Positions 22,403 to 60,877 of a DNA stretch of 64,000 nt are shown here, piece by piece (the first letter of the stretch is position 1; every line of letters starts with the position of its first letter). Source of the stretch: an uncultured Candidatus Saccharibacteria bacterium (GTDB lineage Bacteria > Patescibacteriota > Minisyncoccia > Phycocordibacterales > GCA-2401445). A program made the translations under genes and the position numbers. The DNA lies in NCBI GenBank assembly GCA_964436015.1, contig CAYTAR010000005.1:17714-81713 (forward strand), given 5' to 3'. The notes under the pieces are model-generated. The model searched no databases. It saw nothing but the letters and a program-made list of their open reading frames with translations, and had not been told where the DNA came from.

Positions 22403-22483
22403 TGGGAGGTAAGAGGGGTTTGCAGAATGTGTCTTTTTTGTTACTATAGTTCTCGTGCATATCGCTTTTGATACGTGCACCAT

Positions 22484-22497
22484 TCCGCGGTAGCTGT
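22484..22497 (+). repeat. duplicated fragment of the tRNA-Asn 5' end
   Basis: ATTCCGCGGTAGCT occurs here and again at the true tRNA start (22573-22586). Confidence 0.4.
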
Positions 22498-22574
22498 CCC
22501 TGCCTGCCGGTAGGCAGGTTGGTAGGTATACGTAACTACCACGAAACGGTATCAAGGAATGCATATAGATTTAT

Positions 22575-22647
22575 TCCGCGGTAGCTCAGTTGGTAGAGCG
22601 TCTCGCTGTTAACGAGAGGGTCCTAGGTTCGAGCCCTAGCCGCGGAG
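22575..22647 (+). tRNA. tRNA-Asn (anticodon GTT)
   Basis: Hand-folded cloverleaf: acceptor TCCGCGG/CCGCGGA, D arm GCTC/GAGC, anticodon loop CTGTTAA, T arm CTAGG-TTCGAGC-CCTAG, discriminator G. Confidence 0.85.
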
Positions 22648-22907
22648 CCGTATAAAAAAATCACCTCTTATATTCTTGAGGTGATTTTTTTATACTTACT
22701 TACACGCGGCAGGGCTCGAACAGGAAAGGGGTCGGGAAAACAGTCGTTTTCCCGTGGAGTGAGAATGCATAGGTATGCATTCGCAAGACCGGAGGCAGAC
22801 GTGCCGAGGTGGGGTCGCAGGCTTTTTCAGCAGAAAAAGACCCGTGACAGGCAGTGAGTCTTCGAACGTTGGAAAACCGTAGGTTTCCAAGGAGTTCGAG
22901 CCCTAGC
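22645..22907 (+). repeat. 263-bp direct repeat copy 1 (att-like; starts at tRNA-Asn 3' end)
   Basis: About 99% identical to 29544..29806 (3 mismatches); begins GAGCC (tRNA 3' end) and ends GGAGTTCGAGCCCTAGC (tRNA T-arm-like core). Confidence 0.9.
22653..22694. terminator. bidirectional terminator just after tRNA-Asn (inside the repeat)
   Basis: AAAAAAATCACCTC-ttatattctt-GAGGTGATTTTTTT perfect 14-bp stem. Confidence 0.7.
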
Positions 22908-22965
22908 TTATATACGAGTACTTTGGATTTTAGAGTGTACTCACGAATAAAATCCTTAGTAACTC

Positions 22966-23034
22966 GTGACCGAGTCCTAGCCGCACACTACACCACAAAA
23001 TTCCAAAAATAATTGTACGTATCCCTGTTTTCTC
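22966..23034 (+). repeat. tRNA-Asn 3'-end-like fragment (F1) plus conserved AT-rich motif (M1)
   Basis: GTGACCGAGTCCTAGCCGCAC matches the tRNA 3' end at 15/16; followed by CAAAAATAATTGTACGTATCCCTGTTTTCTC; the unit recurs at 30020, 30727 and 31991. Confidence 0.7.
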
Positions 23035-23086
23035 TCAAACTCAGCATCTTGTGCTGCCACTGTATGTATATGTAAATCTATCTTTA

Positions 23087-24250
23087 TCATCGATTACCTT
23101 TTGCCCTGTTATGTGTCTTACACAACATCTGGCAATTTTTTGCGTCCGTTGCACCACCCTTACTCCACGCTGCCACATGGTCGGCATCCATGTCGCTTAG
23201 ACCCCAGATTTTCTCTTTGTTGGCATCATGCCCAATTGCACAAAGCGGACAGTTTGATTCGCCCTTTTTCTTTGCTGTGGCAGTTTGAGCTTCATACACT
23301 GAACGTTTGGTTGCATCATCAAACACACGTACATCAAGTAGTTTTGTATCAACTTCACCACCTAAGACGTACTCAAAGATTCCTTTGCGGTTCTTTACGT
23401 ATGCATCACCATAGAGCCGTTGCACTGCTGTGGCTACTTTCTTAGGATCATATTTTTTCTTGTGATAGGTTTCGTAAAGTCTATTCCATTCCAATCCTCT
23501 CATTTCACTCTCAACATCTGTGAATGTTTTGGATACCCAGTCAATGACTTTATCAAAGTGATTCTTTAGCTCCGTAATGTTCTTATCGTTACGATGCTTA
23601 CTCATGTAATTGTCTATGGCACCATCAGAAACCCAGTCTAAAGCTCGCTCCAAATATGCTTGGCGTTTGATGTCACCAGCAATATAGGCACTCCACTTCT
23701 GCACATTGGCGTTTTGACTGTTACTAAACTCTTCACGTGCCTTAGTAACAAAAGGACCCGAATAGACGGCGTTTAAAATCTCCTGCTCAGTTAGCGGCAC
23801 TCCAGCAATATTAATAGTCTTGAACCAATCCTTGATCTCTGGCTCGTCGCCCTCGCACACATACACCAACAATTTGGTGTTTAGTATCTGTTCACGCTGA
23901 CTGTCAGCCATACCGCTGTAGTACTGCTCATGGCCGTTCTTGTCTTTAACAGCAAACTTACCGGTAACAAATCGTCCAATACTGGTAATGCGCTGTTGGC
24001 CATCGAGGACCTCAAATTTGTCTTTTCCAACTTGGTTAAAATAAATCAAACCAATGGGGTATCCCTTCAAAATTGAGTCAATCACAGCAACATCCTTTTT
24101 GCCGTCAGCATAAATATAGTTACGTTGATATTCTGGTTGAATCGTTAGCTTGCCAGACAAACCAAACAAACCCTTTCCTTCCAACTCGTTATACACGAAG
24201 CCGTCGCAAACTTCTTCGATGGTGATGTCATTTTTTAGCGTTGTTTTCAT
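23087..24250 (-). CDS. DUF262 (ParB/GmrS-like) N-terminal domain + C-terminal HNH nuclease (GmrSD-like type IV restriction candidate)
   Basis: DGQQR motif of DUF262; C-terminal CPLC...[10 protein letters not shown]...[13 protein letters not shown] zinc-finger motif. Confidence 0.75.
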
Positions 24251-24252
24251 AA

Positions 24253-25440
24253 CTATTTTTTCTTGTGCTTGATTAAAACTCTCTGATAAACTTTTTCCAG
24301 TAAACCATTGACTTTCACGACTCCGCTAGCGTTAAGATCATAGATGCCTGTCTTGCCAAATTTATCTAGATACGCCTGTTTACATTCTGTAGATGTGTAA
24401 ACTTTGGTTTTTTGTTTATATAAATCCTCATTTTCACACATACCAACAATCTTAAATTGGTCAGGGTTATATTTATCTAGGAAACTAATTGGCACCCCCA
24501 TAACACCACCATAGTCACTAGGAATTGCTTTAGCGAACGGCACCTCAATGGCATCGTAATTTTCATATTTCAAATAGCTCGTTTCTTTCTTTTGTATCTG
24601 CTTATTAAATTTTTTATTTTCTGCCATGGTCATAAATTCAAGTGGTTGGTGACGACGACCATGATCAAGATTAGTAAACCAGCGAACACCCATCACACGC
24701 GCGTAGTGAACGCCATTTTTATCAGTCCGCCAATTGCCAATTTCCTTGAAAATATAATGCGGAACTACAAACTCTCTATCTCCACTACTTATACTTGGTC
24801 CAAGCCAGACCTTATTCTCTTTAATCATTGGAAAAACTTCTTTGTAAGTTATGGCATTCAAGTTACCAATGATTAGAAATTGTTTTTTGTATTCAAAAAG
24901 CTGAGTAATGTACTCACGGAATAAACTAAAGGGAGGATTAGTGACGACAATATCACTTTGCTTGAGAAGCTCCACGCATTCATCACTTCGAAAATCACCG
25001 TCTTCTTCGAGCGGTGCCCACTCGTTATTTTTATTAGCTTTAAGCTGCAAAGCAATGTCTTCAAGTGTGAATGAACCGTCGCCATCAACATCACCAACCT
25101 CGTTGATGATGAACTTGTTTGCGGTAATTTTTGGCCGCCCTTTAGCTGGTTCAAGAGTGACATCGTCACCAAACAGACCGATTTGAGTATTTGCAACCGG
25201 TGAAGGTTTGTAGCTAGTGGTAATGAGCCTCTTTAATCCTAGTCTATTAAAATTTAGAACGAAATATCGAAAGAAATTGCTTTCATATGGATCATCACAA
25301 TTGCTATAAATTACTTTACCCTTGAAAGTATCAGGGTCGTATTCAAGATAAGACTCGATTTCTTTTTGAATGTCCGAATACTGGGTATAAAACTCGTCAT
25401 TCTTTGTCCGCTTTGCGTTTGTAAGATTTTTGTTTGCCAT
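24253..25440 (-). CDS. gamma-class N6-adenine DNA methyltransferase
   Basis: N-terminal DEFYT (HsdM/IIG-like motif) and catalytic VVTNPPF (motif IV). Confidence 0.8.
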
Positions 25441-25445
25441 AACAT

Positions 25446-26435
25446 TTACAGAGTTTTTCTTCGTGTGAGGATCGGCTTAGCATCCAGTGAACCGATAAAG
25501 TAAAAACTATGGTTGAGATAGCTTGCCATTTCTTCTACTTCAGATAATGCATTGTATATAGCATTTCCCAATTCATACTCTTTTGTATTGCATTTGATTA
25601 TCTTGTCGCCAAAGATATCAGTGGCCTCATTCTTATCAATCACAAACCCATGATCCTTGTATTCATATACAAGACGCTCGGCAATATCTTTGGGCGTATT
25701 GGCAAGCTTGCTCGCTCGAGGACTGAGTAATCTTTCCGCATATTGCATTGCAGATTCCGCAACACGTTCGTAGTAACCCACCTGTACTGGTTCAACAGAA
25801 AGATTGAGATACTGCGCAAACATTGAGGCAGATGCGGGATATTTTTTTACAAGACTGGCAATGTGTTCAATTGAATTCTTTAGACCGAGAGCAGGTACCC
25901 TGCGTCCAGAGACTTCAGATTTCATCTGTGGATCAATTGGACCAAGCTCACTCATACTGCCCATATGTATCTCATCAGATGCACACGCTAGAAGAGTAGC
26001 TGCTGACTTAGCATAACGAGGCACAACGGTTACGAATTTCTTATTAGAAAACTCAGAACAAAGTTTCCCAATCAAATATGCTGATCCTGGCTCTCCACCA
26101 CCAGAGAGTAAGATGAGCAGAAGTGGTTTATCGTTGTTGAACTCTGTTATCGCTTCATAGATTTTGTCAGAGTCACCCTTAACCAAAATCGTATTATCGA
26201 ACAGGATTAGAGTATTGAAGTCTTCACCACAATCATGTTTATTAACTTCTTGTCTAAGAAATTTCTTTAAGAGAGCCGAGAACTCATCCTGTTTTGTTCG
26301 AGTCCCGTTTTTACCATAACCATCTACAAGAACGGTAAACAGGTCAACAAAAGATATTTCTTTCTTTTCTGAAGACTTTGGCTGACTGGCCTTAGTTGTC
26401 GTTGCTTTTTTAGGTGTTGGTTTCTTGTTTTTCAT
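25446..26435 (-). CDS. SDH/S49-family Clp-fold serine protease (SppA-like)
   Basis: LLSGGGEPGSAY and ACASDEIHMG blocks typical of the S49/SDH peptidase fold; Lys-rich N-terminus. Confidence 0.6.
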   Translation of the reverse strand: MKNKKPTPKKATTTKASQPKSSEKKEISFVDLFTVLVDGYGKNGTRTKQDEFSALLKKFLRQEVNKHDCGEDFNTLILFDNTILVKGDSDKIYEAITEFNNDKPLLLILLSGGGEPGSAYLIGKLCSEFSNKKFVTVVPRYAKSAATLLACASDEIHMGSMSELGPIDPQMKSEVSGRRVPALGLKNSIEHIASLVKKYPASASMFAQYLNLSVEPVQVGYYERVAESAMQYAERLLSPRASKLANTPKDIAERLVYEYKDHGFVIDKNEATDIFGDKIIKCNTKEYELGNAIYNALSEVEEMASYLNHSFYFIGSLDAKPILTRRKTL

Positions 26436-26437
26436 AC

Positions 26438-27133
26438 TTATTTCTCGTTATCGAGCATAACTTTCAACTGGAAGATTGTATCTGACTTCAGCTTTGCCCG
26501 TGCAGAGTCTTTCTGTGGATCGGACAACAACTCACCAAGACCATCCAAGATGTGCTTGTTATCCATCTTTTCCAGCATATCAATACATTTCTCCAGCGTT
26601 TCTTTGAAAGACATTCCTGAGCGCTGTTCCACTATTTCGCGATTTATTGACCAATTACTCTTAGCAAAGTAATTAACGTCAAACACGTCTCGGCTCGTCT
26701 TGCCGACACGTTCATACATCGCCATGAGTTTGTGGGCAAACATATCCTCCTGGACCATGACGAGCATTGAAATACCCAACAATGTCTTCATCTCGTATCG
26801 TGAGCCAAATTGTCTGCGATTGACCTCGACCTTTATGTTCTGAGCTTTCGGATCATAAGAGACGACATGGAGCAAGTTAAATCTCTTGATGCGAGAGTCG
26901 AGCACTTTGCCATACTCTTTGACAATAGTGCTGACCTTTTCAAACACCTCATCCTCCTTTGATTCGTCCAGCAAATCAAAGTCTAGGTCTACCGAATTAC
27001 GCGGCAAGTCATAGAACATAAGTGCCGCAGTACCACCTTTAAACCCGAGGCAGGGGGCAATGGAGGTATCAGAGTAGATATCTTTCAATATCTGCAACAG
27101 GATATTTTTATGTTTTGAATAGTCTAAGGTCAT
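26438..27133 (-). CDS. abiEii: AbiEii/AbiGii-family nucleotidyltransferase toxin (type IV TA)
   Basis: FKGGTAALMF...RNSVDLDFDL NTase motif; overlaps upstream abiEi stop by 4 nt. Confidence 0.8.
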   Translation of the reverse strand: MTLDYSKHKNILLQILKDIYSDTSIAPCLGFKGGTAALMFYDLPRNSVDLDFDLLDESKEDEVFEKVSTIVKEYGKVLDSRIKRFNLLHVVSYDPKAQNIKVEVNRRQFGSRYEMKTLLGISMLVMVQEDMFAHKLMAMYERVGKTSRDVFDVNYFAKSNWSINREIVEQRSGMSFKETLEKCIDMLEKMDNKHILDGLGELLSDPQKDSARAKLKSDTIFQLKVMLDNEK

Positions 27134-27732
27134 ACGGTTTTTTCTTTGTTATAGGCTTTGAAGTATTCTTTTACTTTCTTCTCCAATCGCTTGTTGTGAT
27201 AGATAGGCGCGATTTTAAAAACCTTATCCCAATCCAAACTAGCCAAGTTATCGAAATGATAGTCTTTGCTCACGTAGATACGATCCAAAAATGCACGTTC
27301 TTTTGTCGCGATCGAGTAGCCCGCTTTGCTTTCAATGCCAGCAGTATTACTCAAGACGTAATCTTTCATGCGGATAAAAGTGATCTTCTGGTCTCCAACT
27401 ATAATTTCGCGATTTACGTATGAGGCAACAAATATATTTCCGTAGTATTGGAAGCTAACCCCCTCACGAGTTAAAACAGTTTCAAAGCTTACATAGGAAG
27501 GCGTATAGATTCTGGTTGCTAACTCAAAGCGATCGTAGTTCTTGTCTTTTGCATACAAGCCACGACGTACTCGAATCAACTTTCCGGCCTTCACATATCG
27601 CTTTAATCGATCAGTGACAACAGAACTATCATCTTCATTCCACAACAAAGCAGCGTCTTTCGTAGAAAAGACTGTCTTGGAAGATCTTAACAAGACCTCT
27701 AAAAATTCTCCTTTTGTTGGTATTTTATCCAT
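27130..27732 (-). CDS. abiEi: AbiEi-family antitoxin/transcriptional regulator
   Basis: Position immediately upstream of and overlapping abiEii; N-terminal winged-helix-like region; internal ATG chosen. Confidence 0.65.
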   Translation of the reverse strand: MDKIPTKGEFLEVLLRSSKTVFSTKDAALLWNEDDSSVVTDRLKRYVKAGKLIRVRRGLYAKDKNYDRFELATRIYTPSYVSFETVLTREGVSFQYYGNIFVASYVNREIIVGDQKITFIRMKDYVLSNTAGIESKAGYSIATKERAFLDRIYVSKDYHFDNLASLDWDKVFKIAPIYHNKRLEKKVKEYFKAYNKEKTV

Positions 27733-27838
27733 TTTCAGTCTAGAAAGGGTATTTAAGTCCCTTTCCAGTAACAATATAGCATATTTTAGATAACTCAACA
27801 AATGGGGATAAGGGGAGAAATAAGCATATCTAGTACAT

Positions 27839-27902
27839 GTCTTATAATATTATAAGACATCATCATGTTGCTGTTTGTCTACTTATAATATTATAAGTAG
27901 AC
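27839..27902. promoter_or_regulatory. two perfect palindromic operators in the divergent abiEi / 27911 promoter region
   Basis: GTCTTATAATATTATAAGAC (20 bp, 27839-27858) and GTCTACTTATAATATTATAAGTAGAC (26 bp, 27877-27902) share the core CTTATAATATTATAAG. Confidence 0.6.
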
Positions 27903-27910
27903 TTTCAGCT

Positions 27911-28879
27911 ATGAAGAAATCTCCCCTAGAACAAGTCAAAGCAAAGCTTAATAAGTACTACTTGGCTGCTTTGACTGCGGAAGAGCTGCAGCTTTATTTT
28001 GACTCGCGACTTGAGAAGGTCTTGCGTGACAAGAAGATCGTAACCCTGCGAGAGCTTGGGTATCTGCTCTGTGAGACTGGTCCGGGTGATCGTCGCTTCG
28101 ATCCACGACACATTCCACTACTTATTCAGGACGGTCTTCTCTCTACTTCCCCGTATGGAAGTATCCCTGAAATTATTGAGCTTGGAGAGAAGAAAAAGAA
28201 AATTGATGAGTATCTCAGAGATAATCAGGATACAGAAGCTGCTAGAAAGCTGATTTTAAAAGTTCTCGCTACCTATGCCAGTGATCTGACAGTGGTCTCG
28301 AAAGATCTGTTTGTTGTGGACGGCATGTTCGGTAAGATTCCAGTTTCTTTTCTTGTTAAGAATGGACAGTGGATACTCCCTGATGAAGAGCTATTTTCCT
28401 TCTTGCAAGAAGCACAGCGTAAAAAACGGCTACCTGTAGTAGTAGCCAGAAAGATATCGGGTATCTTGTTTCCGATGTTCAAAGGTATTTCAGTTTTGGG
28501 ATTGAATCTTTACAAGACGTACCTACCAAAGAATGCCAAAGGACTGGTTGACGCGGCAGTCATTCCTGCCCAGGGTTTTATGAGAAAGTTGCGATACTCC
28601 GGTCAGTTTGAATACCTCACAAAGGACTATATAGAAGGGATTGAAGACGAATATTGGACCGGTGATCCACTCAAGAACTTTTTGGAAGTAATCATGCCCA
28701 GGCATGCAGAAGACTACTATCAGCGTTTTGTTGATCAGAAGATCACTACCGCAGATAACTTCGCTGATACCGTGTCGCAGTTCCGAAAAAACAAAGCCAC
28801 CAAAGGTCTTCTGAATACTTATGAAGCGCAGGAGAATTTGATTCAAGAACTCAGTAAAACAACTAAGAAAGGCTCATGA
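27911..28879 (+). CDS. hypothetical protein (322 aa), divergent from abiEi
   Basis: ATG at 27911 (the ORF track TTG start at 27875 lies inside the operator palindrome); no domain recognised. Confidence 0.5.
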   Translation: MKKSPLEQVKAKLNKYYLAALTAEELQLYFDSRLEKVLRDKKIVTLRELGYLLCETGPGDRRFDPRHIPLLIQDGLLSTSPYGSIPEIIELGEKKKKIDEYLRDNQDTEAARKLILKVLATYASDLTVVSKDLFVVDGMFGKIPVSFLVKNGQWILPDEELFSFLQEAQRKKRLPVVVARKISGILFPMFKGISVLGLNLYKTYLPKNAKGLVDAAVIPAQGFMRKLRYSGQFEYLTKDYIEGIEDEYWTGDPLKNFLEVIMPRHAEDYYQRFVDQKITTADNFADTVSQFRKNKATKGLLNTYEAQENLIQELSKTTKKGS

Positions 28880-29388
28880 AAACGAACGGATGGCACAAAA
28901 GAGTACTGCTGAAACATGCTAAAGAAATAACGACTAATGGGATGACCTATGCAGTCATTGCGCTTGTACTCTTACTCTGGCACTTTGCTCTTGATATGAA
29001 ATTTCAGTGGCAACAGATAGCACCTTTGTCAGAACCAAGTATCTTTGTCCGTGCATTTTACAGCGCATTCACGTTTGGAACATTAGGCCTATTACTGTAT
29101 GTACTCCGCTTTTACAAAGTCTTGCACGACATCATGGTTAAAGCTTTCGGTATGTGGGAACTCTATAACCTGATCAAAGCGGTGATCTGGCTGGGCTTAA
29201 TGTATGTCTCTTATGCCTATCTCGTACCATGGCTATTTAAGTTTTTGAATACTGGAGCGTCTGTTCTTTTCAACATTGCCAACCTGGTGCTATATATCGC
29301 ACCTCCTATAGGTATTGCTTTGATCGTAAGCATTATTTATCTGATCCTCAAAAATAAATTCGCATTGAGACATCGTGCCCCGAAATAA
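28876..29388 (+). CDS. 4-TM membrane protein, translationally coupled to the upstream hypothetical
   Basis: ATGA overlap; four hydrophobic helices; no domain recognised. Confidence 0.5.
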   Translation: MKTNGWHKRVLLKHAKEITTNGMTYAVIALVLLLWHFALDMKFQWQQIAPLSEPSIFVRAFYSAFTFGTLGLLLYVLRFYKVLHDIMVKAFGMWELYNLIKAVIWLGLMYVSYAYLVPWLFKFLNTGASVLFNIANLVLYIAPPIGIALIVSIIYLILKNKFALRHRAPK

Positions 29389-29543
29389 CACACGGACTCA
29401 TTGTAGTTGCTTAGTATTCAAACACCTCGTGCCTATTGCATGTACTTCGGGAGGATCGGCGTGATACCGGCACGTTCCAATGCTTCGCTGGAACGTCGCC
29501 AGAAGTCCGCTTCAATAGCGGTTCTAATGCGTCGCATTCCGTC

Positions 29544-29806
29544 GAGCCGTATAAAAAAATCACCTCTTATATTCTTGAGGTGATTTTTTTATACTTACTT
29601 ACACGCGGCAGGGCTCGAACAGGAAAGGGGTCGGGAAAACAGTCGTTTTCCCGTGGAGTGAGAATGCATAGGTATGCATTCGCAAGACCGGAGGCAGACG
29701 TGCCGAGGTGGGGTCGCAGGCTTTTTCAGCAGAAAAAGACCTGTGATAGGCAGTGAGTCTTCGAGCGTTGGAAAACCGTAGGTTTCCAAGGAGTTCGAGC
29801 CCTAGC
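29544..29806 (+). repeat. 263-bp direct repeat copy 2
   Basis: Identical to 22645..22907 apart from 3 mismatches; includes the same terminator hairpin (29552-29593). Confidence 0.9.
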
Positions 29807-30019
29807 ATTTATGTGTATTCGAAAGACGGAGCGTACGAAGTCGCCTTCTTAGGCGTGCGCGAGTCGGGTGAGAAGCGAACACTTGGAGCTTTGCAAGACC
29901 TTTTGAGCTGTTTTGTGAGTGAAGCGAAATAAAAGAGTCAAAAGGTGTACAGAATCTGTAAGATTCGCGAACACTTAGTCCGCACAGTGTGCAAAGCACA
30001 TGAGCAGACTTAGTGATTT

Positions 30020-30088
30020 GTGACCGAGTCCTAGCCGCACGCTATACCACATAACTTCAAAAATAATTGTACTTATCCCTGTTTTCTC
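30020..30088 (+). repeat. tRNA-Asn 3'-end-like fragment (F2) + motif M2
   Basis: GTGACCGAGTCCTAGCCGCAC then CAAAAATAATTGTACTTATCCCTGTTTTCTC. Confidence 0.7.
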
Positions 30089-30181
30089 CAAGGTATTTTT
30101 CTGTTGCCTGAGATGGGAGTCAAATTATTGACTTTTAATTAGTAAGAGGTAATCTTGATTCAGAAAGTTTAAAACATTTTT

Positions 30182-30514
30182 ATGAACAAGACACCTATTC
30201 CCTGCCGCTGTGGAAGAAATCCAGAGGTGAACACTAACCTACGTGGATATCGACACTCTATTTCATGTAAATGCGGGACAAGTGAAATAAACTTCATCAC
30301 GTGGTCCGACAACGAACAGAAACTACAGGACAACTGGGAATCCCTTATCAGGGGTACACCCTACAAACATAGCGTCCAACACCTGCCAAATCCAGAAGCT
30401 GAGATGCAGGTATATGTGGCGACAATTGGTAGTGAGAATTACGATACTAACCCACTTCGCCGATACATTCGGGCAACTGGAGGCCACTGCTCAGGCGGCG
30501 GTGGTCCTTGCTAA
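30182..30514 (+). CDS. hypothetical zinc-ribbon protein (CxC...CxC)
   Basis: PCRCG...SCKCG pairs of cysteines; a terminator-like hairpin follows (about 30529-30570). Confidence 0.35.
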   Translation: MNKTPIPCRCGRNPEVNTNLRGYRHSISCKCGTSEINFITWSDNEQKLQDNWESLIRGTPYKHSVQHLPNPEAEMQVYVATIGSENYDTNPLRRYIRATGGHCSGGGGPC

Positions 30515-30726
30515 AAACATCAACAAAATCACGAACCCGCACAAGCAAAAGCTACGGCGGGTTTTTCTTTTATACGCCTCCGAACTTACCCAACCTTTCA
30601 ATACTCAATTTAACCAAAGGATATATCCTAAACAGTTCGGTGAATATGTAATTTGGGAAGCATAAAACACAAAGTCCTCGTGAGAAGCAGGGGATTTTTT
30701 GTGTCCTTTCGGCTAGGACTAAAAGA

Positions 30727-30788
30727 CGAAGCCCTAGTCGCACACTACACCACAAAATTTCAAAAATAATTGTACTTATCCTTATTCT
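30727..30788 (+). repeat. tRNA-Asn 3'-end-like fragment (F3) + degenerate motif M3
   Basis: GAAGCCCTAGTCGCAC then CACCACAAAATTTCAAAAATAATTGTACTTATCC. Confidence 0.6.
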
Positions 30789-30895
30789 TCTATGATTTGA
30801 CAAATACTACAATTAATGCTCTACTTAGACTTAGAAGCAATGACCGGATAAGTGTCCGAAAACAGGCTTATACTTGAACCTACAATAAAAGGACT

Positions 30896-31303
30896 ATGTC
30901 GAGCACAATGGCAGACGCGCTAAGTAAAGTTGGACTGATTACTGAGCAGGAAAAATACCGGTTACTCGCAGACCAGGCCCACTCAATCGCTGAACGTGAA
31001 GCGCTGTGGAAGAAAACTGCGAGTATGGGGAATCAAACGGAGCACCTTGCTCTTGTTCAGAATTGCTCAGCAATTAGTGAGTTCAAGGATTCCGCGAGAA
31101 AACTTCTCTGCGAATATCCCGAGTTGGCAGGTGATGTTGTAAAGGCTTCACAACGATTCAAAGAACAAAAAGGTGGAGACAAGTTGGTATGTCTGTGCGG
31201 CCAGGTAGAAACCCTGTTACGGCAAATTCAACCAACGAAACGCGAGCGCTTTCTCAAACGAGCGTTCCGTTGCGCAGATAGCACTGTTCCCATTCACTAC
31301 TAA
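30896..31303 (+). CDS. hypothetical protein (135 aa)
   Basis: ORF with its own terminator; no domain recognised. Confidence 0.45.
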   Translation: MSSTMADALSKVGLITEQEKYRLLADQAHSIAEREALWKKTASMGNQTEHLALVQNCSAISEFKDSARKLLCEYPELAGDVVKASQRFKEQKGGDKLVCLCGQVETLLRQIQPTKRERFLKRAFRCADSTVPIHY

Positions 31304-31347
31304 ACGATAACCCTTAATGAGAAAGGCACTCATATGTCTGCTTAATT

Positions 31348-31376
31348 AACCCACACATTGGTGTGGGTTTTTTTAT
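31348..31376 (+). terminator. rho-independent terminator
   Basis: AACCCACAC-attg-GTGTGGGTT hairpin followed by TTTTTTATTT. Confidence 0.65.
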
Positions 31377-31406
31377 TTATTTCCCCTCGCACCAAAGGCT
31401 CAAAAG

Positions 31407-31427
31407 ACGAAGCTCTAGCCGCGAAAC
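31407..31427 (+). repeat. tRNA-Asn 3'-end-like fragment (F4)
   Basis: GACGAAGCTCTAGCCGCGAAAC; the CTAGCCGCG stretch matches the tRNA acceptor 3' strand; followed by TTGACT-17-TATCAT promoter-like boxes. Confidence 0.55.
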
Positions 31428-31525
31428 ATTGCTTGACTTTTAATATATAATGTGTTATCATATAAAAAGTAATTCCAACCGTATGGTTAGGTGGTTCCGA
31501 AAGGAATAACAAGGTAATTGTATCC

Positions 31526-31846
31526 TTGAAAAATACATCAAAAACAGATAAGAGAATGGAGTTAATTATGGCCAGAACATTAAGAGTAGTAAGTTGTCCC
31601 GACCGCCTAAAACTGGCGTTTTGTCTCCTTGAAGGGGACAATAAAAATCAGGCCCCAGTACAGTTCATGGTTAAGGAGAACGATGGCGAAAATCAATGGG
31701 CAGAGTATGTAAATCTTGACAGCATAGGAAGGGAAGACGGGAGTGGAGGTAATTTCAACCTAACTGGATGGAATACCGCAAACAAAGCTCGCGTCAGGAT
31801 TTTCCTTTCACTTAAACACCGCTCTGGCGTGATGACTTTCGAGTAG
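31526..31846 (+). CDS. hypothetical protein (106 aa; alternative start at 31556)
   Basis: ORF with its own promoter-like boxes and terminator; no domain recognised. Confidence 0.4.
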   Translation: MKNTSKTDKRMELIMARTLRVVSCPDRLKLAFCLLEGDNKNQAPVQFMVKENDGENQWAEYVNLDSIGREDGSGGNFNLTGWNTANKARVRIFLSLKHRSGVMTFE

Positions 31847-31860
31847 TACTCTAATCAAAT

Positions 31861-31894
31861 CCACTGCGCAGAAACCTGTCGCAGTGGTTTTTTA
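31861..31894 (+). terminator. rho-independent terminator
   Basis: CCACTGCG-cagaaacctgt-CGCAGTGG hairpin followed by TTTTTTATTT. Confidence 0.65.
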
Positions 31895-31990
31895 TTTGTA
31901 TAAACTTAGATTGCTTAATTTTTAATAATTTACCTTTAGTTTGTAGTGCTGAGCGTGTTTAGTATAGAGAATTGTGTATGGATAGAATAT

Positions 31991-32054
31991 GAAAAATAAT
32001 TGTACTTACCCCTGTTTTCTTCTTATCCCTGTTTTCTTATCCCTGTTTTCTCTC
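31991..32054 (+). repeat. motif M4 with a triplicated TATCCCTGTTTTCT unit
   Basis: GAAAAATAATTGTACTTACCCCTGTTTTCTTCTTATCCCTGTTTTCTTATCCCTGTTTTCTCTC. Confidence 0.7.
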
Positions 32055-32093
32055 GGAAGTGAAAGAAGTCACTATTTCTGCTAAAATAGCCTC

Positions 32094-32681
32094 ATGGGAC
32101 CTCAAAAAGATTGGTCTGACTATTACAAAGCAACACAATCAAAACCGCCTAGGCCACTCTTGGTTAAGGCACTTGAGTATGTAAACAATAAAGTTAAGGC
32201 TATTGATATTGGTGGGGGTGCGCTCAACGACACAAAATATCTCCTTGATCAGGGGTTTGAAGTAACAGTAATTGATAAAAGCCCGCTGGTGGAACAAGAG
32301 GCTAAAAAAATACCAAACAATAAGCTACAGGCAATCACTACTTCGTTTGAAGATTTTAGTTTTTCAAATGAGGAGTATGATCTTGCTTCAGCAATGTTTG
32401 CACTTCCATTTACATCACCAACTCATTTCAATGAAGTGCTTGAAAAGATAAAAAGGTCACTCAAGAAGGGTGGGATATTTTGCGGTCAATTCTTTGGAGA
32501 TCGTGATGAATGGAATATAAATCCTAAGATGACTTTCCATACTAAAGCAGAAGTCGAAAATCTTCTCAAGGACCTCGAGGTTATTTCTTTTAAGGAAGAT
32601 GAGAAAGAAGACAAGACTGCCACTGGTGGCATGAAGCATTGGCACATCTTTCATATAATTGCTCGCAAAAAACGAGGTTAA
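32094..32681 (+). CDS. class I SAM-dependent methyltransferase (TehB-like)
   Basis: AIDIGGGALNDTKYLLDQGFEVTVIDKSP motif I/II; 195 aa. Confidence 0.7.
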   Translation: MGPQKDWSDYYKATQSKPPRPLLVKALEYVNNKVKAIDIGGGALNDTKYLLDQGFEVTVIDKSPLVEQEAKKIPNNKLQAITTSFEDFSFSNEEYDLASAMFALPFTSPTHFNEVLEKIKRSLKKGGIFCGQFFGDRDEWNINPKMTFHTKAEVENLLKDLEVISFKEDEKEDKTATGGMKHWHIFHIIARKKRG

Positions 32682-32708
32682 ATCTCGTTCTGTATAACTA
32701 GTTATTTT

Positions 32709-33251
32709 ATGAAAACATTAAATAAGTATAATATCGGAAAAATTGCAGAAAGAATTGTTATGAATGAATTAGAATCTCGGGGCTACAGAGCAACAGATTT
32801 AAACAAAGATGGCCTCAGTGCAAACTCAGATATTTTAGCTGCTAAAGGTGGAAAAACTTGGCAGATTCAAGTAAAAGGGTCTACTAATAAAATTACAGAT
32901 AGATGGTGGGTTCAGTATGGATATTGTAATGAGAAAATTATAAACAAAGAATCCAGTGTATTTAATAGCAAAGATTCTTTTTATTTTGCTGACTATGTTG
33001 CTCTTGTTGCTATAAAATCACCATCTGATTATCGTATATTTATTATGCCTTCAAGAATAGCGGAAAGGGCAGCACAATTAAATTTGGATAGATATTATAG
33101 AAGACCTAGGGTTAGAGATGGGGGTGTTAGACAGCCTGGTAAAATTTGGGTTGCAGTTGAGAGAAGTAAATTAGAAAGACAAAATGATCCTTCGTTAGAT
33201 AAAGAACGAAGTATATTACAAAAAAGTGAAGATCAATGGGAATTAAAATAA
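32709..33251 (+). CDS. PD-(D/E)xK fold protein resembling Holliday-junction resolvase Hjc (QxK variant)
   Basis: SDILAAKGGKTWQIQVKGS matches the Hjc core D..K..hhIEVK with Q in place of E; the gene is very AT-rich. Confidence 0.45.
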   Translation: MKTLNKYNIGKIAERIVMNELESRGYRATDLNKDGLSANSDILAAKGGKTWQIQVKGSTNKITDRWWVQYGYCNEKIINKESSVFNSKDSFYFADYVALVAIKSPSDYRIFIMPSRIAERAAQLNLDRYYRRPRVRDGGVRQPGKIWVAVERSKLERQNDPSLDKERSILQKSEDQWELK

Positions 33252-33434
33252 TTTTTTATAATTTATCCTATCAAAATTTTAATATTAAAACCAAGTAGTT
33301 AGATGTTAATCATTAGAGCCACAAAATTTACACTTAAAACCCCAAGACTAAAGTCTCAGGGTTTTAAGTTTATAATCACTCGGCCACGGGGCGAGTGAGA
33401 TATGCCTCGTACAAAAAATGACACCATGAGTAAT

Positions 33435-33689
33435 CTATGCAGTTCGTATAGCTTTAACAATCCCAATGAGCACAATTGCTCCTAGAAGAGCTACGAGAAA
33501 ACTATACAAGTTGAAACTGGTAATGGCGCCAGTTTCTCCAAAAAAACTCATAAGCCATCCGCCAATTACTGCACCTATTACACCGACAACTACATTAAGT
33601 ATGAGGCCTTGTGAATTGTCAGTTCCCATAATGATTGATGCTACCCAACCGACGAGTCCTCCGAATATAATCCAAATAATAACTCCCAT
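33435..33689 (-). CDS. GlsB/YeaQ/YmgE family stress-response membrane protein
   Basis: 84 aa with Gly-zipper TM helices (GGLVGWVASIIMG...GVIGAVIGGWL). Confidence 0.85.
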   Translation of the reverse strand: MGVIIWIIFGGLVGWVASIIMGTDNSQGLILNVVVGVIGAVIGGWLMSFFGETGAITSFNLYSFLVALLGAIVLIGIVKAIRTA

Positions 33690-33790
33690 ATGGTTTTGTG
33701 GTTAGCTGATAATATACCCCTGATGTTGTTTTATTCCCTATATTTTATTCTGGTATTTTTTACCCTTTCCTAACTCTGTTCCTCTTAGCT

Positions 33791-33964
33791 CTAATTTTTG
33801 TTTTCCTTTTCTTCCTCAGAGTCATCTGCTGATTCATGGGAGACTTCAGCATCAGTAGTCTTCGCATCAGCAACTCTTTGCTCAGCATGCGTCTTTTCAT
33901 CGACGGCTTTTTTTACGTTATGGTTAGACTTTTCTTCTTTATTGCGATTATTGTGTTCATTCAT
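33791..33964 (-). CDS. candidate small Lys/Glu-rich hydrophilic protein (57 aa)
   Basis: Reads MNEHNNRNKEEKSNHNVKKAVDEKTHAEQRVADAKTT...; the alternative + strand ORF 33798..34013 is Ser-rich and low-complexity. Confidence 0.25.
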   Translation of the reverse strand: MNEHNNRNKEEKSNHNVKKAVDEKTHAEQRVADAKTTDAEVSHESADDSEEEKENKN

Positions 33965-34129
33965 ATGTTTGTTGTTGTTAATTATTAATACTAATAATAG
34001 GGGTTATACATAAACCGCCGAGCAATGGAGAAAACTATTACAGACTGTTTGATTCTGTAATTTTCTTTTGAATCAAACGGCATAGTTCGTATAGAGGTTA
34101 TATTAAAAGTTAATTCTAATAAAAATAGT

Positions 34130-34378
34130 ATGACAACAGTAATAAATACGCCTCCAGCACATAACACTAATACAGAGCGTACTGACGCGGGGGGTTGGGC
34201 TGTAGCAATAATTGTTCTGATCGCGGTTATAGGAACTGGAATATTTTTCTGGCTCAATTATCGAGATACTCCAGCACCAGCGCCACAGACTCCAAGTGCT
34301 GCAGATACTTCAACCAATATAAACGTTACACTTCCAGGCACAGATACTGAAGATCCAGAGGCAACTGATTCCGAGTAG
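34130..34378 (+). CDS. small single-TM protein with a Pro/Thr-rich tail
   Basis: One hydrophobic helix (WAVAIIVLIAVIGTGIFFWL); 82 aa. Confidence 0.4.
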   Translation: MTTVINTPPAHNTNTERTDAGGWAVAIIVLIAVIGTGIFFWLNYRDTPAPAPQTPSAADTSTNINVTLPGTDTEDPEATDSE

Positions 34379-34469
34379 TTGCGAAACTTCCGATTTTGAA
34401 CCTCGGCAAGGGGAGGATTCGTGTGGTCCAAAAGGTTACTTGTTAATGATTTCAACGTATACTATTTAC

Positions 34470-35225
34470 ATGAACAAAACACTTATATGGGTTGCCGTTG
34501 TCATTGTATTGGCTATAGGGGTGTGGTCCTTTTTTCAAAAAGAAGAGGTTGCTCCTATTGGAGGAAGTAGGGATAGTAATGGCTGTTTGGTCGCGGGGGG
34601 TTACACTTTTGATGAAGAGGTAAGGGCGTGTATTAGAGCATTTGAAATGACCCCCGATATTAAGCAAGCGTCTAGGTTGGCGGTTGAGCGTGTCGGAGCA
34701 GGTTACGCGCTTACAGTCGTATCATTTAATTCGTATGAAGAAAAGGGGAACTACGACATTATGCTTGAGCGAGGAGAAGAGCGCACAAAAGAGGCCGTGT
34801 ATATTCGCCAAGGAAATGTTGTTGAACCGCAACGTGTGCAGATATATTACTATAATGCGGAGCAAGACAGTGATGCAGAAGGAAACATTCAGTGCAGTAA
34901 AGACGGACTGGTCGCGCTTGAACGTGAAATACCACCAACACAAACTCCTCTCAAGGAAGCTATTGAACTTCTCCTTGAGGGTCGCGTAACTCCAAAAGAG
35001 AAAACGCAGGGTATCATGACAGAATTTCCTCTTGAAGGTGTGGTGTTGATGAATGCATCTATCGTAGATGGAGTTGCAACGTTGACTTTTGATGACCCGC
35101 AAAATAAGACCGGTGGTGGTTCATGTCGTGTGTCCATACTGTGGGCGCAAATTGAAGCGACCGCAAAACAGTTCCCGGCTGTAGAGTCGGTACGCTTTTT
35201 GCCGGAGGAGTTATTCCAGCCCTAA
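34470..35225 (+). CDS. GerMN domain-containing membrane-anchored protein
   Basis: N-terminal TM then a C-terminal GerMN-like region (LLEGRVTPKEKTQGIMTEFPLEGVVLMNASIVDGVATLTF). Confidence 0.65.
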   Translation: MNKTLIWVAVVIVLAIGVWSFFQKEEVAPIGGSRDSNGCLVAGGYTFDEEVRACIRAFEMTPDIKQASRLAVERVGAGYALTVVSFNSYEEKGNYDIMLERGEERTKEAVYIRQGNVVEPQRVQIYYYNAEQDSDAEGNIQCSKDGLVALEREIPPTQTPLKEAIELLLEGRVTPKEKTQGIMTEFPLEGVVLMNASIVDGVATLTFDDPQNKTGGGSCRVSILWAQIEATAKQFPAVESVRFLPEELFQP

Positions 35226-35281
35226 ATCTATTATTTCGTCTCCGAGGTCCAACCTCGGTAAGGGTCTAATTATGATATAAT

Positions 35282-35497
35282 GTGGTTATGCAAAAAATAG
35301 CTACACGAATTTTTATCTATTCTTCAATAGCGTTTGGGATAATCGGAATGGGTATTGTGTTAACTGCTTCTGGACCTGATACTCCAGATTCAAAACTTGA
35401 TGAAACATTGATCAGGCTCCTCTTTGCGACGGTTTTCATTATACTTCCTTCATTTGCGTTAAGCATTGCAGGTAAATACTTAAATAACAATTCGTAG
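35282..35497 (+). CDS. small 2-TM membrane protein
   Basis: Two hydrophobic helices; 71 aa. Confidence 0.35.
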   Translation: MVMQKIATRIFIYSSIAFGIIGMGIVLTASGPDTPDSKLDETLIRLLFATVFIILPSFALSIAGKYLNNNS

Positions 35498-35559
35498 ATT
35501 TCCATAAGACAAAGAGTATATGTAGAAGCTCGCATAGCCACATTCAGCACGTTGTAAGT

Positions 35560-36273
35560 ATGGCCACTGAATTAATACAAAAGGAGTTACGAAAATACGC
35601 GAGTAAAAAGCGTGCTTTGGTGAGTCGTCGGTTTTTCAAAACAGGAAAGGGTCAGTATGGAGAGGGGGATATATTTGTGGGAGTATCAAACCCTGATGCA
35701 CGCAAAGCGGCGAAAATGTTCGTACACGCCTCTTTTTCTGATATTAGAGCGTTGCTTGAGTCTTCAGTTCACGAAGACCGTTTTGTGGCACTTGAAATAC
35801 TTGTTGCGCAATATGAGAATGCAAAAAAGAAGAATGAAACTAAAGTTCGAAAGAGTATTGTTGATTTTTATTTAGCACATACTGACAGGGTTAACAATTG
35901 GGACTTGGTTGATACCAGCGCTCCGTATTTACTCGGGGATTACCTTCGTAAAAAGTCAAAAAGTATTTTGTATCGCCTGGTACAATCTAAAAAATTGTGG
36001 GAAAGAAGAATTGCGGTTGTATCTACACTTGGATTGATACAGGTGCATATGTATACCGACACCTTGAAGCTCGTTTATATATTGCGGAATGACCGTGAGG
36101 ATTTGATTCATAAAGCGTGCGGATGGATGTTGCGAGAGGTAGGGAAGCGGGATAAACTGACACTCGTTAATTTTCTTGATACGCACGGATCGTCTATACC
36201 GCGTACAACACTTCGGTATGCGATTGAACGATTGTCTCTAAAGCAAAGAAAACGATATATGGGCAAAAAATAA
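35560..36273 (+). CDS. DNA alkylation repair enzyme (AlkD/AlkC-like HEAT-repeat glycosylase family)
   Basis: ELRKYASKKRALVSRRFFKTGKGQYGEGDIFVGV N-terminus characteristic of this family. Confidence 0.8.
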   Translation: MATELIQKELRKYASKKRALVSRRFFKTGKGQYGEGDIFVGVSNPDARKAAKMFVHASFSDIRALLESSVHEDRFVALEILVAQYENAKKKNETKVRKSIVDFYLAHTDRVNNWDLVDTSAPYLLGDYLRKKSKSILYRLVQSKKLWERRIAVVSTLGLIQVHMYTDTLKLVYILRNDREDLIHKACGWMLREVGKRDKLTLVNFLDTHGSSIPRTTLRYAIERLSLKQRKRYMGKK

Positions 36274-36294
36274 CCCCGCAATGTATTGCGGGGG
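36274..36294 (-). terminator. hairpin CCCCGCAAT-gt-ATTGCGGGG (copy 1 of 2)
   Basis: Same 21-nt hairpin recurs at 36806..36830; the U-tract lies on the minus-strand side. Confidence 0.45.
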
Positions 36295-36805
36295 GATCTC
36301 ATAGGCAGATAGGTCTTTTTTATTTTCTGAATTAATGATAGTTTTATATAGGAAAGGAATAAAGGCGATGAGAAGAATAGTAGGATTTATAACACAACCT
36401 TCAGTTACCTCGTTTGGCGATAATGTGTATCGCCCGAGATACTTTTCTGTTTTGTCAGACATGCTTTGTCTTTTTACCCTTGGAATCATCAAGCCAAGGA
36501 GGAGGAAAGGAGAGGTTTGCTTCGGTGACCTTTCATTCTAGTTATTGCGCTCGCTCAACACCCACTTGGAGTAATCCTTGTGGGTGTTTTTTTGAAAGGG
36601 AATCAGGGGGGGGCTAGTTACATTCAGGCCCAGTAATTGAACCAAGAATTTGCAACATAGAGCCGTTGTGGTCTATACATGAACTATATGCTTCGGAACT
36701 TAGTGGTATTGAAATCGCAAATTTAGATATTATTCCAGATGCATTACATCTATAAACTTTTATTTGAGTATATGCTGTATGTAGTGTGTATAAGTGTATA
36801 TATAA

Positions 36806-36830
36806 AACCCCCGCAATGTATTGCGGGGGG
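36806..36830 (-). terminator. hairpin CCCCCGCAAT-gt-ATTGCGGGGGGG (copy 2), terminator of the minus-strand gene 36842..37108
   Basis: Hairpin followed on the minus strand by TTTTATATAT. Confidence 0.5.
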
Positions 36831-36841
36831 GGGGTAGGAAA

Positions 36842-37108
36842 TCAGGAGATGAGTTCCTGCAAGTATCCTTGAGGTGTGAATCTGCGCGTACGCATGTGAG
36901 AGGCGAGGCGCATTTTGAACTGTTCCTCAAGTCCGGGAGTCCTCTCCCAATCGAGCCTGACGCCAATCCTGTGACAGGTGAACGTGAACGGGTCGGGGCA
37001 CGCGTTTGGACTTACCCCAAACAGGGTGCAGATATCTCTCTGTGAGACGTTGCGGTTGAACTCCACATGGAGGTTATTCCCTGTGCATTCAATGACAGAT
37101 GTTTGCAT
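36842..37108 (-). CDS. hypothetical HTH-like protein, possible transposase N-terminal remnant
   Basis: ICTLFGVSPNA resembles the IS630-type HTH FGVSP motif; short, no catalytic domain; higher GC. Confidence 0.25.
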   Translation of the reverse strand: MQTSVIECTGNNLHVEFNRNVSQRDICTLFGVSPNACPDPFTFTCHRIGVRLDWERTPGLEEQFKMRLASHMRTRRFTPQGYLQELIS

Positions 37109-37214
37109 AATGTACTGTATTCCTTGTTTCGTTGCTCTCACCTTGAGATTGTTCCAACAAAAACAATCACACTATTCTACAGTAAAACGTAATTTTGTCA
37201 ATTCTCACCTGTGA

Positions 37215-37245
37215 AAAACCGCCACTCAAAGAGAATGGCGGTTTA
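37215..37245 (-). terminator. hairpin terminator
   Basis: AAAACCGCCA-ctcaaagagaa-TGGCGGTTT. Confidence 0.5.
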
Positions 37246-37476
37246 GGTGTCCGGAGTCTTCGGGTGGGCAGTAATACTCATTATCCGATTTGCTAGGCGT
37301 GGATGTTTTCCGAGCTCGAGGATTGTGTGTAGGTATTCATCGGGAGCAATACCTGTGATTTGGTTAAGTGTGGACAAAAAACGGACATTCCGTAGTCCTT
37401 GTGCACGCGCTACTTCCATTACACCGATATGTTTGGACGCGTGCTTCCAAGTGAGTCTAATAGTAACAACATGCAT
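37243..37476 (-). CDS. hypothetical small protein
   Basis: 77-aa ORF ending at the terminator; no domain recognised. Confidence 0.25.
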   Translation of the reverse strand: MHVVTIRLTWKHASKHIGVMEVARAQGLRNVRFLSTLNQITGIAPDEYLHTILELGKHPRLANRIMSITAHPKTPDT

Positions 37477-37534
37477 CTGTGTATGATAGTACCGATAGAT
37501 ACGGGTATTGGCAACTTTGCTATACTTTGAGTAT

Positions 37535-37756
37535 ATGTATGTAAAAGTACGAGTTACTGCTGGTGCAAAGAAAGAGAAAAGTATCCGTTTGTCTGAGTCT
37601 TTGTTTGAGATACAGGTAAAAGAGCGAGCGGAAAGAAATATGGCAAATAGGAGGGTTCAGGGTATTCTCGCTGGCGAGTTTACAGTACCTCCTCGCTCGG
37701 TGCGTCTCATTAGCGGACATAGAAGTCCTGTAAAGGTTTTTTCAATTGATGTATAA
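37535..37756 (+). CDS. DUF167 (YggU/UPF0235) family protein
   Basis: VKVRVTAGAKKE...ANRRVQGILA...RLISGHRSPVKV matches the DUF167 consensus. Confidence 0.7.
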   Translation: MYVKVRVTAGAKKEKSIRLSESLFEIQVKERAERNMANRRVQGILAGEFTVPPRSVRLISGHRSPVKVFSIDV

Positions 37757-60375: not shown

Positions 60376-60609
60376 AACAGAGATTAGAGAGAAGAGATTA
60401 GAGATTAGAAAGGAAAGAGACAAGAGGAAAAACAGAGATCAGAGAGAAGAGATTAGAGATTAGAAAAAGAAAAGAAAGAGAAATTTAGGAATGATGTTTA
60501 TTTTCTTATAGAAACCCTTATCTTACGATATATCGTAAAATATAGGAAAAGTGAAAAGAAAAATGGTAAGCATAGAACAGAGATTGGTGATTGGAGATTA
60601 GAATTGAGA
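60375..60609 (+). repeat. purine-rich degenerate tandem repeat (about 36-nt unit, 3 copies)
   Basis: GAACAGAGAT(T/C)AGAGAGAAGAGATTAGAGATTAGAAA at 60375 and 60431, degenerate copy at 60573; multiple GGA triplets. Confidence 0.6.
60523..60538. promoter_or_regulatory. palindrome TTACGATATATCGTAA (copy 1 of a 4-member family)
   Basis: Related perfect palindromes at 60657..60678 (CTGTAGCGATATATCGCTACAG), 61276..61293 (CATACGATATATCGTATG) and 61434..61459 (ATATCTTACGATATATCGTAAGATAT). Confidence 0.5.
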
Positions 60610-60877
60610 ATAAAGATATAAAATATCGATTAAAAGATAAAAAAGGAAATATAAATCTGTAGCGATATATCGCTACAGATTGCTCTCTAAAAATAAACAG
60701 CACCTATTGATGCTGTTTATTTTTACGCTTTGTGTCACAAGTTACTAAGTCTGCTCCTGTGCTCCGCACGGTGCGCGGACTAAGTACTCGCGACACCGTC
60801 TCGCCTGTCGCAAAGCGACACGGCTCCGACTTCACACTTCGCTCGCACGCAAAGCAGTTTGCGTGCTTTACGCTCGT

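Follow-up and report, generated by a model that had tools for sequence, protein, structure and literature searches.

A four-copy AT-rich motif beside tRNA-like fragments, a possible arm of putative att-type junctions in a tRNA-Asn-linked island of a Patescibacteria genome

Why should a short AT-rich motif recur beside fragments of a tRNA, between segments of unrelated DNA? The question is raised by a 64-kb stretch of contig CAYTAR010000005.1 (hereafter the window, meaning the whole 64,000 nt analysed), part of a metagenome-assembled genome (MAG) of the Paceibacterota, in the candidate phyla radiation (CPR/Patescibacteria). An initial annotation of this DNA had described an AT-rich motif repeated four times, three times behind a tRNA-like fragment and in the last copy with a triplicated sub-unit, and had read the repeated unit as a boundary between cassettes. 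Our analysis bears out each of these points: the units part unrelated DNA, a defence block and cassettes of open reading frames (ORFs) without homologues (ORFans), inside a hypervariable island, and the combinations of their arms show recombination at a tRNA-like core. We favour, at about even confidence, the explanation that the repeated unit is a composite att-type junction produced by serial site-specific insertion of foreign DNA beside a tRNA-Asn gene.

The motif consists of AAAAATAATTGTAC followed by TAYCCYTRTTYT, 31 nt in all, and its four copies in the 64 kb lie at most 9 kb downstream of tRNA-Asn. A scan of the window for the full motif returned 23004-23034 (copy 1) and 30058-30088 (copy 2) with no mismatch and 31991-32021 (copy 4) with three, the chance expectation being 0; copy 3 (30761-30791), the right half of which has diverged (TTATCCTTATTCTTC), was recovered by a repeat finder and by the 14-mer AAAAATAATTGTAC, which is invariant and occurs four times in the window, at 23005, 30059, 30762 and 31992. 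Moreover, the gapped pattern TTGTACN{2,8}CCYTRTTYT matches the four motif sites and nothing else in the window (expected 0.02). The motif is directional, no inverted partner being present anywhere in the window, and forms the unpaired half of the unit when this is folded as single-stranded DNA. Copies 1-3 lie on the same side of the core, at a constant spacing of 20 nt from the tRNA-like fragment AGYCCTAGYCGC (22973, 30027 and 30730). A further such fragment, at 31411-31422, has no motif, and copy 4 (31991-32051, plus strand) has neither core nor linker. The sub-unit TTAYCCCTGTTTTCT is found once in each of copies 1-3 and three times in copy 4 (periods 17 and 14), where, in the form TAYCCCTGTTTTCT, it runs head to tail at 32007-32020, 32024-32037 and 32038-32051 (Tandem Repeats Finder: period 14, 2.9 copies). 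These sub-units are always on the plus strand, 3' of the core and distinct from it in sequence, the layout of arm-type sites. The triplication in copy 4 is spanned by a hydrophobic ORF of 31 codons (MKNNCTYPCFLLIPVFLSLFSLGSERSHYFC, 31989-32084), with its ATG at 31989. No match to the WATCAA-N4-TTR pattern of integration host factor is evident at the motif.

The motif is one part of a larger arrangement. Each boundary is made up of a left arm, a tRNA-like core and a right arm, and the repeat finder delimits a unit of 80 nt in three copies, the second and third 89% and 74% identical to the first. The core, CGAGYCCTAGYCGC, matches the T-loop in its 3' part, the T-stem in its 3' strand and the acceptor stem in four bases; such direct repeats of the tRNA 3' part, 12-16 nt long and excluding the acceptor end, bound the inserted segments. 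Six direct tRNA-like matches were found against 0.38 expected, with T-arm copies at 22894 and 29793. All the parts of the junctions are on the plus strand. At copy 1, a type-a left arm (22914-22970), which is a long hairpin (CGAGTACTTTGG...CCTTAGTAACTCG) followed by TGAC, leads into the core CGAGTCCTAGCCGC (22971-22984) and then into a right arm (22985-23034) composed of the 20-nt linker ACACTACACCACAAAATTCC and the motif AAAAATAATTGTACGTATCCCTGTTTTCTC. Copy 2 (core, linker and motif, 30025-30088) is preceded by a longer hairpin spacer (29813-30024) that includes a type-a hairpin (29968-30024). At copy 3, a type-b left arm (GGCTAGGACTAAAAGACGAA) is joined to the core GCCCTAGTCGC, the linker and the motif (30712-30791), and the same type-b arm recurs with the fourth core (AAAAGACGAAGCTCTAGCCGCG, 31402-31423; tRNA-like fragment at 31411), which has no linker or motif.

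The nearest relative, GCA_040879725.1, with about 69% nucleotide identity in core genes and the sole close one, adds a further combination. The type-a arm (CGAGTACTTWG...CTTAGTAACTYGTGAC), which the relative shares with copies 1 and 2, keeps its outer stem and varies in its inner part from copy to copy, and the spacer before copy 2 is homologous to positions 119-232 of the relative's contig L006 as well as to a module at tRNA-Glu, described below. Right arms are of three types: linker plus motif (copies 1-3), an unrelated promoter-like sequence (at 31423) and, in the relative, the GGAGCC end of the tRNA with a terminator (L006:233-300). The arms combine as type-a with the motif (twice), type-b with the motif, type-b with other sequence and, in the relative, type-a with a true tRNA 3' end. 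Homology among the copies ends exactly at the edges of the core. These four left/right combinations and the position at which homology ends are the main evidence that the core is the recombination joint. The quality of the junctions also falls with distance from the tRNA, from 89% identity to 74%, then to a core only and finally to a motif only.

The tRNA-Asn(GTT) gene (22575-22649, plus strand) anchors the island and is 100% identical in the relative, the contig of which ends 47 nt past that gene. Synteny stops at tRNA-Asn and is regained, on a second contig of the relative, at 37604, and no gene between the two points is shared with the relative; the segment 22650-37600 is therefore a hypervariable island. 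It begins at the 3' side of the tRNA and is strain-variable, the location expected of a tRNA-associated element. Directly observed are the repeats, the fact that they are confined to this tRNA-linked island, and arms that assort independently of one another around the core. The type-a arm and core are 82% identical to L006:178-246 of the relative, against about 69% for genes. The one motif-like stretch of the relative, AATTGTACAAACGACCCTGTTTT (L006:576-598), is separated by some 330 nt from the tRNA fragment on its left and is the only match to the gapped pattern in 104 kb of comparison loci. There, an indel of 2 nt between two conserved blocks distinguishes the window from the relative and speaks against coding constraint; the motif was accordingly rejected as coding sequence, a start codon being present in copy 4 alone. 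It was also rejected as the recognition site of the restriction-modification (R-M) system of the island, none of the four copies, when read, containing GAATTC or CAATTG. Of the relative's contigs, one stops 47 nt beyond tRNA-Asn (L001:14698-14745) and another has its first bases in a type-a hairpin arm (CTTAGTCACTTCGTGAC, L006:1-20); the assembly appears to break on these repeats, and the relative's island probably holds several copies of them.

More distant relatives (67% gpmI identity) have no synteny with the locus. The initial annotation had counted a ubiquitous motif, for example a common promoter unrelated to mobile DNA, as evidence against its reading. That is not what we find: no copy in the window lies outside the island, and three public collections gave a single match, among GTDB species representatives (in a Lactobacillus coding sequence, a chance match), and none in JGI metagenomes or in IMG/VR. 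The pattern of hairpin plus core gave five matches, all in contigs of 64-71% GC without tRNAs and attributable to chance, and none in IMG/VR, where the type-a hairpin pattern gave seven chance matches in coding DNA.

The upstream side of the tRNA differs from the relative as well. The first 12-15 nt of tRNA-Asn (CATTCCGCGGTAGCT) are repeated 92 nt upstream (22481-22495, plus strand), where the relative's tRNA starts, and the displaced copy is parted from the real 5' end by a hairpin-rich stretch of about 77 nt (22496-22572) that the relative lacks, which suggests an insertion at the 5' end of tRNA-Asn as well.

Around copies 1 and 2 the duplication extends further, to a head in which a 274-nt block X is followed by the hairpin and then by the 80-nt unit. 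The two copies of block X, at 22640-22913 and, delimited by the repeat finder, at 29539-29812 (both plus strand), are 97% identical. The first contains the tRNA terminator hairpin (22650-22695) and, apart from it, four hairpins, together with an inverted T-loop-like sequence, GGCAGGGCTCGAAC (22708-22721), and a direct copy of the T-arm, GTTCGAGCCCTAGC (22894-22907); the inverted sequence pairs with the direct copy to form the closing helix of the block. Block X (22696-22915 and 29595-29812) folds well beyond shuffled sequence (z -5.85). It was rejected as a minus-strand tRNA or transfer-messenger RNA (no ARAGORN or Rfam match, no T-stem) and as a primer-binding site of retroviral type, the inverted copies matching the gene and its flank and not a mature CCA end; Rfam ruled out a group II intron, HEARO or another known RNA. 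At the Rfam gathering score just two tRNAs pass, and the other matches are generic hairpins far below threshold.

A parallel module lies downstream of a tRNA-Glu gene (60725-61092, minus strand), with no cargo and no AT-rich motif. It starts with a terminator and an inverted copy of the 3' end of tRNA-Glu; hairpins come next, then a direct copy of that 3' end (19 nt), further hairpins and, last, a type-a hairpin (60787-60734) about 80% identical to the hairpin at 29968-30024 beside copy 2. The module folds with a z of -9.7 against shuffled sequence. Its tRNA-like parts match the local tRNA, tRNA-Glu, and its hairpin is common to the Asn locus. Nearby (60374-60600, minus strand), pyrimidine-rich repeats containing ATCTCTGTTYT three times resemble the right half of the motif; the pattern ATCYCTGTTYT has seven exact matches in the window against 0.18 expected, all of them in the two tRNA-linked regions and in the orientation of the local tRNA. 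The shared hairpin and ATCYCTGTTYT at a Glu-specific module match a family with conserved arms and target-specific cores. As judged from its sequence, this is a module family with conserved arms and tRNA-specific cores at two tRNAs, and the tRNA-Glu module suggests a genome-wide phenomenon and not a single accident. The tract at 60374-60600 is itself a purine/pyrimidine-skewed stretch of low complexity, with tandem units of about 55 nt (TCTAATCTCTAATCTCTTCTCTCTRATCTCTGTT...), situated between a Mur ligase gene, to the stop codon of which it extends, and the module.

How could junctions of this kind have been built? In the explanation we favour, each would comprise a hairpin left arm of one of two types, a core of 12-16 nt that copies T-loop and T-stem together with the first bases of the acceptor, and, as right arm, the 20-nt linker plus the motif. 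The core, CCTAGCCGC, would be the crossover site. We infer that a recombinase made the joints and that it binds the motif, and we likewise propose an order of events in which new DNA arrives on the tRNA-proximal side and shifts older segments outward; entry at that end would cause the junctions to decay with distance from the tRNA. The motif would then be an element-side arm common to a family of related insertions. A tyrosine recombinase, either lost since or encoded at another place, could bind it through its accessory (arm-binding) part, with TTATCCCTGTTTTCT as the iterated recognition unit and candidate arm-type recombinase site. That the motif is an arm-type site is plausible, and compatible with its anatomy: directional, unstructured, adjacent to the core and iterated.

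Several observations weigh against this explanation. About 40 ORFs of the window, some 20 of them in the island, were compared with Pfam and yielded no integrase, resolvase, transposase or other recombinase, so the enzyme is hypothetical; an AlphaFold model of an ORF of 322 aa, considered as a possible hidden recombinase, has a predicted local distance difference test score (pLDDT) of 40 and is unusable. In copies 1-3 the core runs directly into the linker (CCGC|ACACTA) and not into the acceptor end of the tRNA. A core-linker joint inside the real tRNA would inactivate the gene, and therefore either insertion used pseudo-sites downstream or the arm is part of a long segment of identity. A single duplication of block X (97%) explains two of the four motif copies, leaving few independent events, and copy 4 stands without a core. 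The motif is missing from the tRNA-Glu module and, one motif-like stretch apart, from the relative, and the inverted copies of the tRNA end in the head blocks are not explained by simple integration. Finally, the source is a MAG, in which the order of segments in a hypervariable region could partly be a product of assembly.

The same observations feed other explanations. The motif could be a passive passenger, a functionless piece of ancestral flank copied by block duplication, by unequal crossing-over or by homologous recombination between alleles of the island, and triplicated by slippage. Copies 1 and 2 do lie within a duplicated head block, tandem expansion of a 14-nt unit is typical of slippage, no recombinase was detected among the ORFs scanned, and the identity between attP- and attB-like sites would have to extend over about 65 nt from core to motif, a length as compatible with homologous as with site-specific recombination. 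Block duplication does not, however, account for copy 3, where a different left arm is joined to the same right arm, or for copy 4, a motif alone, so that the motif recurs beyond the duplicated block; moreover, the adjoining bases diverge but the 14-mer AAAAATAATTGTAC is the same in every copy, and a similar pyrimidine sub-motif occurs at the second tRNA-linked module. We regard a passenger origin as less likely, yet as a serious alternative. An origin in the assembly itself, with island alleles of co-existing strains joined by the metagenome assembler into apparent tandem boundaries, is suggested by the nature of the source, by the relative's contigs, which break exactly at these repeats, and by the close similarity of the two blocks X. 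Nevertheless, the copies differ from each other (97%, 89% and 74%), which speaks against collapsed or duplicated reads as their source, the 2 kb containing copies 3 and 4 and the small cassettes have no long exact repeat to mislead an assembler, and hairpin plus core exist independently in another genome; we consider an artefact very improbable.

Two further proposals assign the motif a function of another kind. As a second crossover site, it would be a dif/Xer-type core (an 11-nt arm, the 6-nt centre TTGTAC and another 11-nt arm) for a Xer-like recombinase of the host, and the cassettes would resemble dif modules or integrative mobile elements exploiting Xer (IMEX), with no integrase of their own. 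Written as TTCAAAAATAA-TTGTAC-TTATCCCTGTT, the motif shows the inner inverted repeats ATAA/TTAT, with 6 of 11 positions symmetric, as in dif and pdif sites; the homology of copy 4 begins about 9 nt to the left of TTGTAC, and the lack of a recombinase encoded in cis fits a host enzyme. IMEX and the dif modules of Acinetobacter are likewise small modules bounded by short recombination sites and served by a host recombinase. Yet ATAA-N6-TTAT is kept in just two of the four copies, the bases that vary being those inner right-arm positions at which real dif sites are conserved most strongly, and across the window the pattern shows no enrichment over chance (1.95 matches expected, 3 found). Both flanks of the island have a positive GC skew with no change of sign, so this is not the chromosomal terminus, and all the sites are direct repeats, whereas dif modules alternate in orientation. 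This proposal seems to us improbable, and we give no more weight to the equally improbable one that the motif is a regulatory element, be it part of a portable promoter (an UP element or -35 box), an operator or a 5' leader, delivered with each cassette. In its favour, an ORF on the same strand follows copies 2-4 at 43-105 nt, TTGTAC loosely resembles a -35 box behind an A-tract, copy 4 carries the ATG of the small hydrophobic ORF, and the motif-like stretch of the relative is just 5' of, or inside the start of, a small ORF. Against it, TTGTAC is in no case followed at 16-18 nt by a -10-like hexamer, a promoter scan makes no plus-strand call inside the motif, and copies 1-3 are devoid of a start codon. 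Better promoter-like boxes are found 6-40 nt beyond the motif (TTGACT at 30128, TTGACA at 30797), and the best of the region, the sole one among these called by the scan, is TTGACT-N17-TATCAT at 31433, at the motif-less boundary 31423. Copy 1 faces the 3' end of a gene, 53 nt from the stop codon of a convergent restriction-enzyme gene on the minus strand (23087-24250). Thus, neither the portable promoter offered in the initial annotation nor its statement that the motif always precedes the next cargo gene, wrong for copy 1, can be upheld.

Returning to serial insertion beside the tRNA, several known systems share features with the locus. In the tycheposons of Prochlorococcus, tandem elements are parted by partial tRNAs, degraded remnants lie deeper in the island, and successive insertions push older ones inward. 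Tycheposons and other additive flexible islands resemble the present one in the tRNA anchor of a hypervariable island, the partial 3' copies of the tRNA between unrelated cargo, the greater degradation of deeper remnants and the defence- and niche-related cargo. Here, however, no integrase or other mobility gene was found, the single-ORF segments measure 0.6-0.7 kb and the host is a member of the CPR; moreover, the partial tRNA is only 12-16 nt long, set inside a longer junction (hairpin, core and 50-nt arm), and inverted copies of the tRNA end are present. Accretion of integrative and conjugative elements (ICEs) and cis-mobilisable elements (CIMEs) also yields att-flanked arrays that have no recombinase of their own and are presumably mobilised in trans, with arms shared among att sites. 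CIMEs, which are att-flanked elements lacking an integrase, are described beside a functional ICE that carries one in the same array; in contrast, no integrase-bearing partner is visible in the 64 kb examined here. In the P' arm of lambda attP, the core and a bend site are followed by three tandem arm-type Int sites, and the locus is similar in having a core, an A/T-rich linker and then, on a single side of the core, a unit of 14-15 nt in direct repeat (three times in copy 4). Three units are nevertheless present in one copy alone, no Int protein was found among the ORFs scanned, and the likeness is one of architecture with no sequence similarity.

Integron arrays and clusters of attC sites lacking integron-integrases (CALINs) offer a different comparison. 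They, too, have single-ORF cassettes of about 0.6-0.7 kb on the same strand, many of them ORFans, with a conserved unit (80 nt here) in between, toxin-antitoxin and R-M cargo nearby and no adjacent integrase. Unlike attC, the present unit is no imperfect palindrome and has a tRNA-derived core, and the cassettes are individually equipped with a promoter-like box and a terminator. No R''/R' boxes (RYYYAAC/GTTRRRY) were seen when the units were read; units 2 and 3, examined for an attC-like fold, do no better than shuffles (z -0.7 and -0.2), and for intI/attI upstream of the array, no tyrosine recombinase was found in the window ORFs scanned. Identity with attC thus fails on both structure and sequence boxes.

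The cargo parted by the junctions is varied. Cargo 1 (23087-29388) encodes on the minus strand a type II restriction enzyme (GmrSD_N+HNH), an EcoRI-like methyltransferase, an SDH-type protease, AbiEii and AbiEi, and ends with two plus-strand ORFs of about 322 and 170 aa that are of unknown function. Three cassettes follow, all on the plus strand and each with a single ORFan, its own TTGAC-type box and a terminator-like hairpin: cassette 1 (30089-30711) has TTGACT at 30128, an ORF of 110 aa (30182-30514) and a hairpin at about 30533-30570; cassette 2 (30792-31401) has TTGACA at 30797, an ORF of 135 aa (30896-31303) and a terminator at 31348-31369; cassette 3 (31424-31990) has TTGACT-N17-TATCAT (31433-31461), an ORF of 96 aa (31556-31846) and a hairpin at about 31862-31896. 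A fused query of four cassette ORFs returned no homologue at E <= 1e-3, and searches for identical proteins, made with proteins of the window, gave no record. The rest of the island (32094-37600) contains an S-adenosylmethionine (SAM) methyltransferase, a PD-(D/E)XK-like ORF of 180 aa, small ORFs, a Germane-domain protein and a DNA alkylation repair protein. In its first part, at 32094-33251, the gene of the SAM-dependent methyltransferase is followed by that of the 180-aa protein, which has weak PD-(D/E)XK and Holliday-junction-resolvase-like matches (PHROG E 0.007); by sequence, the two may be a second small R-M-like pair. In the distal island a GC-rich terminator-like hairpin, CCCCGCAATGTATTGCGGGG, occurs twice, at 36269-36295 and 36804-36830, 535 nt apart and around small ORFs.

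With moderate confidence, then, the locus represents a known process, tandem integration linked to a tRNA, in an unusual form without an integrase. What sets it apart are the CPR host, the lack of a detectable integrase, the very small size of the promoter-bearing cassettes, and the occurrence at two tRNAs of structured tRNA-end modules. A bolder and in our judgement unlikely possibility is that this CPR lineage has an undescribed family of folded, non-coding, tRNA-attached modules, each with inverted and direct copies of the local tRNA 3' end, a shared hairpin and a pyrimidine-rich arm. These would be landing pads where defence blocks and single-gene cassettes with promoters are stacked by a recombinase acting in trans, forming an integron-like capture platform anchored at tRNAs and lacking an integrase in cis. 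We found no description of tRNA-linked islands in CPR/Patescibacteria in the literature. These bacteria have tiny genomes and few recognised mobile elements, and the plasticity of their genomes is poorly understood. Since the junctions of the defence island and ORFan cassettes stacked at this tRNA are well preserved, gene gain in these organisms becomes trackable from metagenomic reads. If the junction arm does bind a trans-acting recombinase, its sequence would provide a handle for finding the enzyme, as well as other insertion hot spots.

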